A stretch of DNA of 64,000 bases from Escherichia coli (lineage in GTDB: Bacteria; Pseudomonadota; Gammaproteobacteria; Enterobacterales; Enterobacteriaceae). The DNA is taken from NCBI RefSeq assembly GCF_017348835.2, contig NZ_CP072312.1; one strand, given 5' to 3'. Each line of letters begins with the position of its first letter. Positions within the stretch are counted from its first letter, which is position 1. The position numbers are program-made. This document shows positions 36,001-39,000 of the stretch, one piece after another.

Positions 36001-39000
36001 CGGTGAAATTTTCGGAGCCGGTCATCGTCTTCTCCAGTAATTACCCGCTATACGCATCGATGTCGAACAGGGTCATGGTTCATCTGGAGGCGCTGGCACC
36101 GCGCGTTGAGCAGTACTCGATTGACGAGATGTTTCTCGACGTGCGAGGTATTGACAGCTGCATCGATTTCGAGGATTTCGACCAGCAGCTGCGTGAACAC
36201 GTCAGGAACGGGACTGGCCTGACTATCGGTGTCGGAATGGGGCCAACCAAAACGTTGGCAAAGTCAACACAATGGGCTTCCAAAGAGTGGCCACAGTTTG
36301 GTGGCGTGCTGGCATTAACGCCGGACAATATCCGCCGTGCGGAAAAACTGCTGTCACTGCAGCTGGCGCACGAACCCTGTATTTATCAGGAAGAACTTCA
36401 ATGTGGTTCTGGAGAGAAAGGTCCGGGAACTCAATGGAGAAAGCTGTATTTCACTGGAGGAAGAACCGCCCCCCCAAACAGCAGATAGTCTGCAGCCGGT
36501 CCTTTAGAGAGCGCGTCACGACATATGAGGCCATGCGCTAGGCCATCTGTCGGTACGCTGAGCGTGCAGCTGAAAAGCTGCGGGGCGAGTGTCAGTTCTG
36601 CAGACATATCGCCATTTTTTTGAAGACGTCACCGTTCGCAGTAAACGAACCGTATTACGGGAATGTGGCCAGTGAAAAACTGCTCATCCCCACGCAGGAT
36701 ACACGGGATATCATTGCCGCTGCCGTTAGAATTCTGGACAGGATATGGGTGGATGGCCATCGATATGCAAAAGCGGGTTGCATACTCAACGATTTCACTC
36801 CTACCGGGGTTTCGCATTTGAACCTTTTCGATGATACTCAGCCCCGGAGCAACAGTAACCAGCCGTTGAAAGTCGTGGACAGCATTAACCATTCCGGTCT
36901 GGGGAAAGTGTGGTTTGCAGGCCGAGGCATTGCGCCAGAATGGCAGATAAAGCGTGAGATGTCGTCACCGGCATACACTACCCGCTGGAACGAACTACCG
37001 GTCGCCAGACTTTGAAAAAAAGAAATTCATGGTGATTTCACTATGAAAGAATTAAAAAAAATACTTTATATTCAGTAAAATAAGCATGAAAAAAGCGTGG
37101 TGAAAATTGCAAAAAAAGGATGCCATTTGGCATCCTGATATTAACCCGGCATATCCTATTCAGGCAGTTTTCTTAGAATGTTTTTTATAGCCTCATCGAT
37201 TTCTAACTGCACCTCATTAGATATGCGGGAGAACTCATAAACAACAAGACGCTTTCTGGGGTCAGTCTTCTTTCTGGCAAATTGGTTACGATCAGAAAAC
37301 TCTTTCAACTTCTCAGTTTCCACTGTTTTTACAGGCCGGTCTGTAAGCAATTTTCCTTCAGACCTGAAGACCGCCAGGATTTTGCTTTTCTCAATTGTTG
37401 GATAGTCAGGTAAAGCCATCAGTTTTTGGCGAACTCTATCCATAAACTCTTCCACTGACATTTTTTTGTTGGTTGCCTTTTCAGACAGTTTCAACAAAAA
37501 TTGATAGTCCGACAGCGAAATATCATTGATTATCGGAAATACAGAGATCATTTCATCCGGTACTGATGCCGCCTGAAATGCGCGTGTTACTTTTGCCGGA
37601 GAGATGCTTTCAGCCTGAGCGATCTCTTCTTTTGTCATACTTGCCCCATAAGTAACTTCAAGGCGTTTTCCTAGTTCTCGGAGGCTATGCTCTCTGGCTG
37701 TCTGTATATCTTTTGCAAGTTGTCTCGCGTCGGCAATATCAATACTGTCTTTTGTAACCAGTATTTCGAATTTTACGTTGTTATAGATACAGGCAGCACG
37801 ACGACGCGTACCGTCTAATACTTCAATTCGTCCATCTACTTCCCGACCAATAGCCGGAAAAAATTGCTGAAGTTTAATCGTGCGAGTTATGTCACTAACT
37901 GACTCACGCGAAAGCATAGTCTGATCGCGTCCATTAACAGATACATCAACGAACGTTTTAGATTCTATATCTCCGCTTAATACAACCGTTTTAATGAATT
38001 TTGCTTGTTTCCCCGACTTAAGAGTAAACGTTTTGATCTCTCCGTCACCTTCAAGCATGCGAGCGAACTCTGAATTGCTATTGCCGAGAACTCGCCCTCG
38101 AGCTAAAACCTTTTTCATTTGGATGCTCCCCGAATGTATTCAATGCGGTCAAAAACGGCTTTAGTAAATCGTTCCGCTTCGGTACGAGCTTTTTTCAATG
38201 CCTCTGCACTTCCTGGATACGAAACAGGGTTAGCACTGATGATAGTGTCAAAAGATTCACCACATCGTTCGAACCCGTCCAGTCTCGGAAGCGATGAGTC
38301 AAGAATATTACTCGCATACACTTCACGAGCCAGGCTATAGGAAGTTTCGTGATCGCGCTTACTGGTCATTTTGGACATAAACCCTATGCTCGCACTCAGG
38401 CGGGGCTCAACGCCTTCTTCTTCCAAACGTTCTAGCATTTCAGGTAAACGAGTCAAATATTTGAGAGTTGAATGGAAATCAACTTGCGCCGGGGGAGTAG
38501 GGGTGAGAAGTAAATCACTCGCAGCCAGGCCATTGAGAAGAAATGGATCAAGATGAGGGCCAGTATCAATAAAAACAAAATCATAATCATCAGCGATACG
38601 GTCAATGATGGTTTTCCTGAGTACTTCAGAAGGCTTAAAACCAGGAAGGTGTTCAGCAACCAAAGACTCCCATTGGCTTGCTACGAAGCCGTCATCAATA
38701 GAAGCAGGGATGACATCAACGCCAGGAATCATAGTGGGTCGGATAACCGCTTCTCGCAGTGTTTCAGCATCGAGATTATTTAGCATTGCTTGGGCGGCAG
38801 TTTCAAGGACTGTACCAATACTATGGGTATGGTCCAAAAACATAGTGCTGGACGCCTGCGGGTCAAGGTCGATCACAAGGATACGAAGGTCATGACGCAG
38901 CAAATCCGGATGTACTCGTAGTGCATGCGCCAGCGTTACTGTACTGACGGTTTTTGAAACCCCACCTTTCAAGTTGACGACAAAAATTACGTAAGGTTCT

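Follow-up and report, generated by a model that had tools for sequence, protein, structure and literature searches.

A pMT1-type parS of the P1par family predicted downstream of parB on a pO103-like IncFIB plasmid of Escherichia coli

The window analysed here, a stretch of 64,000 nucleotides from the Escherichia coli contig NZ_CP072312.1 (assembly GCF_017348835.2), carries on its minus strand a parA-parB operon that is followed by a 140-bp interval at positions 37016-37155. This interval comprises the entire gap between the stop codon of a umuC remnant and the stop codon of parB, and these limits are exact, since the remnant, transcribed from the plus strand, converges on the site and ends at position 37015. 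Judged from its sequence, the interval is very probably the 3' end of a P1par (type Ia) parA-parB-parS operon located on a pO103-like IncFIB virulence plasmid of enterohaemorrhagic E. coli (EHEC). The putative parS centromere (37020-37103, minus strand) is a straightforward orthologue of the parS site of the Yersinia pestis plasmid pMT1, and a member of the well studied P1par family. An initial annotation of the window had placed both a parS centromere and a parB terminator within these 140 bp, and this placement is supported by the annotated sites of P1 and P7 as well as by the homologues of the pMT1 group. Sequence anatomy, homology, conservation and the association between a ParB residue and the box B hexamers of parS were computed; ParB binding, involvement of integration host factor (IHF), transcription termination, partition activity and incompatibility are what we infer. 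The features of the region are listed in Table 1.

Both par genes are intact, full-length open reading frames (ORFs). The ParA translation matches at its N-terminus the helix-turn-helix domain of P1 ParA (HTH_54/PF18607, 2e-36), followed by AAA_31 (3e-23), and holds the deviant Walker A motif KGGVSKT; in the annotation of pO103 the parA coding sequence (CDS) measures 1206 nt. ParB, which possesses the P1-type DNA-binding domain PF08775, matches the crystallised P1 ParB chains of the P1 ParB-parS structures PDB 1ZX4 and 2NTZ (at approximately 6e-32), and is 81% identical to the ParB protein of pMT1, 68% to that of P7 and 42% to that of P1, while at the DNA level parAB is 71% identical to P7 parAB. 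The protein also carries the arginine patch LDGTRRRAA; in ParB proteins in general, this conserved patch supports loading and spreading. The putative parS starts 52 nt beyond the stop codon of parB, immediately downstream of parB within one parA-parB-parS unit. With the ParA and ParB domains and a single parS directly downstream of parB, the partition system is predicted to be complete, as had been proposed initially; no further partition genes are annotated on pO103.

To describe the anatomy of the site, the window was aligned with the parS features annotated in GenBank for P1 (AF234172) and P7 (AF503408), and with five homologous plasmids that a search for distant DNA matches had retrieved. 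This comparison with P1 and P7, which the initial annotation had suggested as a check, gave an alignment without gaps from box B1 to box B2, with every box in register and with a B1-to-B2 start spacing of 68 bp in all three sequences. The left arm reads TCACCA-cgctt-TTTTCAT, and a fixed distance separates it from the right arm, whose core ('parS-small') reads CTTTCAT-a-GTGAAATCACCA at 37049-37030, in register with both references. Boxes A2, A3 and B2 suffice for P1 ParB to bind, and box A4, located after B2, is dispensable for ParB binding (PMC10999674). The two P1-type heptamers that had been described as flanking an AT-rich spacer, ATTTCAC and GTGAAAA, are both present on the plus strand (at 37035-37041 and 37100-37106, respectively), as is the AT-rich stretch, but only ATTTCAC, corresponding to A3, is a box A. 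GTGAAAA, the complement of TTTTCAC, aligns to box B1 and its flanking T's, the true A1 being TTTTCAT, and the pair of box B hexamers, on which the specificity of the site depends, had been missed. The heptamer TTTTCAC was also considered as an extra box A lying over B1 and was rejected: it results from the CA dinucleotide of a TCACCA-type box B, and the T-rich context of B1 is shared by P1 (TTTCGCCA) and other lineages.

Table 1. Coordinates of the par operon, the putative parS site and neighbouring features in the window.
Feature	Coordinates	Strand	Evidence and remarks
Box A4, degenerate	37020..37027	-	AATTTCT in register (37027-37021), 3/7 vs ATTTCAC; ATTTCTT with a 1-nt shift, 5/7
Box B2, TCACCA, pMT1-type specificity hexamer	37030..37035	-	1-nt overlap with A3; in the register of P1 B2 (TCGCCA) and P7 B2 (TTCCCA)
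Box A3, GTGAAAT	37035..37041	-	Identical to P1 A3
Box A2, CTTTCAT	37043..37049	-	Aligns with P1 A2 (ATTTCAA) and P7 A2 (ATTTCAG)
AT-rich spacer between the arms	37050..37085	-	Length as in P1/P7, no gaps
Position of the P1 IHF site in the spacer, plus-strand ATTCAGTAAAATA	37070-37082		In-register alignment with P1
Box A1, TTTTCAT	37086..37092	-	Aligns with P1 A1 (ATTTCAC) and P7 A1 (ATTTCAT); pattern search
B1-A1 gap, cgctt, 5 nt	37093-37097	-	Same length as in P1
Box B1, TCACCA	37098..37103	-	In register with P1 B1 (TCGCCA) and P7 B1; invariant in 7/7 pMT1-group homologues
Predicted intrinsic terminator of the par operon	37111..37136	-	Terminator scan and folding, -13.7 kcal/mol; 19 nt after the parB stop codon, 7 nt before B1
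parB, P1-family centromere-binding protein, 320 aa	37156..38118	-	Pfam PF08775 at 3e-35
parA, type Ia partition ATPase, 401 aa	38115..39320 (ATG at 39320)	-	HTH_54 and AAA_31 Pfam matches; 4-nt overlap with the start of parB
Imperfect inverted repeat, TTGCGTACAAAGT / ACATTGTACACAA	39355..39386	.	13-nt arms, 85% complementary; 35-66 nt upstream of the parA ATG
Phd/YefM-RelE toxin-antitoxin pair	40038-40573	+	Coordinates transferred from the annotation of pO103; separates the par operon from the RepFIB gene
RepFIB initiator gene	41626-42603		Mapped from the pO103 annotation; approximately 2.3 kb beyond parA
umuC (Y-family DNA polymerase) pseudogene remnant	35964-37012	+	First 47 codons gone; split over three reading frames

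Taken on its own, the heptamer ATTTCAC occurs in the window at chance level (14 copies against 11.9 expected), and this would suit a reading in which the AT-rich segment is a promoter or terminator region for the neighbouring genes and its likeness to parS is accidental; two promoter-like hexamer pairs on the plus strand between 37043 and 37081 point in the same direction. Such pairs, however, are found as often as expected from shuffled sequence (6 against 5.4), no downstream feature on the plus strand needs a promoter, and the composite motif is not random. The complete B1-A1-spacer-A2-A3-B2 pattern, allowing up to three mismatches, has one match in the window and none in 100 shuffles, the 12-mer GTGAAATCACCA has no second copy in the window (any other match needs two mismatches), and the in-register homology and identical spacing to the annotated P1 and P7 sites exceed what chance would give. 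Nor is the segment a known RNA: this candidate was rejected after an Rfam scan of 36400-37800, which gave no credible match, the best hit being a Listeria small RNA with 16.9 bits, where the gathering score is 200. An accidental likeness is therefore given next to no credence.

Conservation of the putative centromere was scrutinized in the seven sequences of the pMT1 group, comprising the window, E. coli pABWA45_2, Enterobacter pE76_001, Y. pestis pMT1, a Klebsiella plasmid, a ColV plasmid of avian pathogenic E. coli (APEC) and an IMG/VR contig. Among these, 27 of the 32 box positions are invariant, versus 13 of the 42 positions in the spacers between boxes (Fisher one-sided p = 4e-6). Boxes B1 and B2 are fully invariant, A2 is invariant at six of its seven positions and A1, the least conserved box, at four of seven, while the A4 position varies across the whole group.

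Several points weigh against the parS assignment. The Fisher value above is only indicative, as it compares related sequences at boxes that had themselves been defined by homology; boxes A1 and A2 each match ATTTCAC at five of seven positions, and A4 is degenerate. The in-register match to the IHF consensus WATCAANNNNTTR shows three mismatches, compared with one or two in P1, P7 and the five pMT1-group relatives, which makes the IHF-position core ATTCAGTAAAATA the weakest match to this consensus of all eight family members in the comparison; a perfect WATCAA is kept at this position by pMT1, pABWA45_2 and the APEC ColV plasmid. The weak IHF position and the degenerate A1 and A4, together with a frameshifted umuC pseudogene next door, which indicates that the region tolerates decay, and a Phd/RelE pair nearby, would be in line with a decayed and non-functional parS relic, on a plasmid that is kept by toxin-antitoxin and copy-number control or whose ParB acts elsewhere. 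Against such a relic stand the intact ORFs of parA and parB, the good preservation of A2-A3-B2, the minimal elements of P1 (PMC10999674), the invariance of B1 and B2 across genera, and the lack of a second GTGAAATCACCA-like site in the window. In addition, a count over 5426 complete genomes of E. coli found parS in 188, almost exclusively on plasmids, with 95-100% conservation. We thus consider a relic improbable and a functional parS the better reading of the site. A-tracts flank the IHF position (A8 at 37053-37060, and an A-run of 6-7 nt ending at 37094), and parS might lean more on intrinsic curvature than on the IHF core.

Between parB and the putative parS, a stem-loop followed by a U-tract at the end of the operon has, in both sequence and folding, the form of an intrinsic terminator. 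It has an 8-bp stem with five GC pairs around a 4-nt loop (AGGATGCC-aaat-GGCATCCT), and then a T7 run; within the pMT1 group, 14 of the 16 stem positions are invariant and the loop is variable. Since no T-run follows the stem on the plus strand, the terminator is predicted to be one-directional. The fold z-score of the 66-nt stretch around the hairpin is only -1.46, and the case for a terminator is made by the hairpin and T-run shape and by their conservation, not by this score. A strong hairpin with a U-tract on the parB strand had already been reported, but as following the parS boxes; the hairpin is indeed present (37136-37111), and on the parB strand it precedes parS.

A natural variant provides further information on the left end of the site. 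In a subset of E. coli F-type plasmids (e.g. CP077295.1, 3124-4120), approximately 1 kb is found between box B1 and the parB terminator; homology between CP077295.1 and the window breaks around 37116, and the junction lies at window positions 37108-37116, approximately. The insert contains an IS50-like remnant with Tn5 inside end (IE)-like and outside end (OE)-like ends, CTGTCTCTTGATCAGATCT and CTGTCTCTTATACACAAAT, and no intact transposase ORF. In this variant parB is intact, boxes B1, A2, A3 and B2 are unchanged, and A1 shows a single C-to-T change (TTTTTAT). This organization is consistent with a left boundary of parS at or before position 37107, approximately, just beyond B1.

The discriminating Asp of P1 ParB is said to be residue 288, according to work by Dabrazhynetskaya et al. 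in 2009, and counting along the P1 ParB sequence gives number 288 to the Asp of EDKDRFARK. Species of parS are told apart by box B, the Asp of P1 ParB being key to its reading (PMC10999674, summarising primary work), and the parS sites of pMT1 and P1 have served as independent markers, each paired with the ParB that matches it (PMC3894414). At the position equivalent to Asp288, the ParB protein of the window has an Asn, located in DRNQFARKK, and the same residue is found in pMT1 ParB; both box B hexamers, TCACCA, are likewise identical to those of the pMT1 plasmid NC_017169. The residue and box B2 were tabulated for 80 IMG/VR loci and ten further plasmid lineages. Asp (in DKDR or EKDK; P1, IncR and pSLT-like plasmids) is paired with TCGCCA, Arg (in DRRQ; P7) with TTCCCA, Lys (in DKKQ; Klebsiella IncFIB(K) and Pantoea pAR1aD) with TTCCC(T/C), and Asn with TCACCA, both in the pMT1 group including the window (DRNQ) and in Edwardsiella tarda (DKNR), whose B1 reads TCTCCA. 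The resulting rule between residue and box B dinucleotide (Asp-CG, Arg/Lys-TC, Asn-CA) has zero exceptions in the lineages with a locatable parS. Providencia pVCSW10.1, Vibrio pYa108 and Pantoea pPAG03 were excluded from the comparison, because no recognisable A/B-box site was found within 230 bp downstream of their parB genes. As the E. tarda ParB protein is closer to P1 ParB (50% identity) than to the window ParB (42%), these pairwise identities, taken without a tree, suggest that the Asn/CA pairing arose a second time, independently, in Edwardsiella. The association between residue and box B represents the strongest computational evidence that the window ParB would read this parS, and for its assignment to the pMT1 species. 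Given TCACCA and the Asn at the 288 equivalent, the site is predicted to be served by a pMT1-type ParB and not by the ParB proteins of P1 or P7.

The likeness to pMT1 further comprises the position of parS after parB, the arm spacing and the presence of a terminator hairpin between parB and parS; the pMT1 hairpin has the same seven conserved stem pairs and folds as eight pairs with a 6-nt loop. Differences were also found: the intergenic DNA of the two plasmids is approximately 76% identical, A3 reads CTGAAAT in pMT1 (GTGAAAT in the window) and A2 CTTTCAC (CTTTCAT in the window), A4 differs as well, the IHF-position core is AATCAA in pMT1 and ATTCAG in the window, and the host plasmid of the window is an EHEC virulence plasmid. 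With a ParB that is only 81% identical, the divergence in intergenic DNA and in boxes A2, A3 and A4 could signal a functional parS of another recognition species, compatible with plasmids carrying the pMT1 par system, in which residues beyond 288 or bases beyond box B are decisive. We regard this as unlikely. The 288-equivalent residue and both box B hexamers, box B being the reported discriminator (PMC10999674), are identical to those of pMT1, and the surrounding ParB motif shows only three conservative changes (LKEFSDRNQFARKKTDPRK in the window, LREFSDRNQFARKKTDPKK in pMT1). The P1 A3 box also reads GTGAAAT, so that variation in A3 falls within the tolerance of the family. Membership of the pMT1 species thus remains the preferred assignment.

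With P1, the putative centromere shares the B1-A1-IHF-A2-A3-B2-A4 order (with a weak match at the IHF position and a degenerate A4), the B1-to-B2 distance, the 1-nt overlap of A3 and B2, the B1-A1 gap and an identical A3, but P1 differs in its box B (TCGCCA), in Asp288 and in the lower identity of its ParB; moreover, in P1 4 nt and no terminator lie between the stop codon of parB and parS, and A4 is perfect. P7 shares the architecture, the spacing and a hairpin between parB and parS, and its ParB is the closer of the two, but its box B hexamers are TTCCCA and GTCCCG, its discriminator is an Arg, and its GC-rich hairpin lacks a T-run. In contrast to P1, the weakened IHF core and the terminator between parB and parS could have made the centromere of the pO103 lineage independent of IHF and insulated from transcription.

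From 36900 to 39500 the window shares 100% identity with many IncFIB virulence plasmids of E. coli, among them pO103 of the O103:H2 strain 12009 (NC_013354), which carries ehxCABD, genes for etp type II secretion and stcE. The window as a whole is 98-100% identical to pO103 in blocks that are rearranged in order and orientation; the block containing parS (24847-46240) is 99.9% identical to pO103 53575-74968. A repeated element is present in several copies in the window, as seen from four identical GTGGACTCACCA matches (e.g. 5989, 14415, 16135, 25088), which fit the multiple copies of IS3-family insertion sequences annotated in pO103. The parS site carries no annotation in the RefSeq records checked. 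In a literature search on the par system of pO103, the only mention was a brief one, of parA/parB on a related pO145 plasmid, and neither box A and box B nor IHF and pMT1 are treated in the ParB papers PMC5002424 and PMC7205306.

The umuC remnant has no umuD or SRAP-peptidase gene upstream, and in Klebsiella and E. coli relatives an intact SRAP-umuD-umuC block runs towards parS. IncR and pSLT-like plasmids also have a Y-family polymerase downstream of parB; the umuC-parS-parB-parA arrangement is therefore recurrent. On the other side of the operon, the inverted repeat that precedes parA is a candidate for a ParA operator and autoregulated promoter region, a role proposed because a par operator of P1 is annotated in AF234172. 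Further upstream, the Phd/YefM-RelE pair separates the par operon from the RepFIB initiator gene, and the par system and RepFIB are adjacent yet separate modules, in agreement with what had been stated initially. The par operon of pMT1 likewise adjoins a toxin-antitoxin pair of the Phd/YefM-RelE kind.

By homology with P1, the following sequence of events can be proposed. Transcription of parAB would stop at the intrinsic terminator, leaving beyond it a bipartite centromere with a left arm (B1-A1) and a right arm (A2-A3-B2 and a weak A4), separated by an AT-rich segment of fixed length at the place where P1 binds IHF. The box A heptamers would be bound by the helix-turn-helix units of ParB and the box B hexamers by its C-terminal dimer domain, and a bend in the spacer would allow ParB to bridge both arms. 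The resulting partition complex would stimulate nucleoid-bound ParA-ATP, through which sister plasmids would be moved apart.

Based on its pMT1-type boxes, the site is predicted to exert partition incompatibility against pMT1 and against those Klebsiella, APEC and Enterobacter plasmids in which the same boxes occur, i.e. against plasmids having a pMT1-type par system, and to be compatible with P1 and P7 types. More tentatively, and with somewhat less than even confidence, the EHEC pO103-type plasmids, pMT1, the APEC ColV plasmids and many F-type plasmids of Klebsiella, Enterobacter and Citrobacter that combine TCACCA with Asn may form one partition-incompatibility species; if this is true, an unannotated parS would help to decide which clinically important plasmids coexist in one cell. 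The practical value of the finding is modest and the understanding of the P1par family is unchanged by it, while the discriminator rule gains natural examples, namely the Lys-TC pairing of Klebsiella IncFIB(K) and Pantoea and a second Asn/CA pairing in Edwardsiella.

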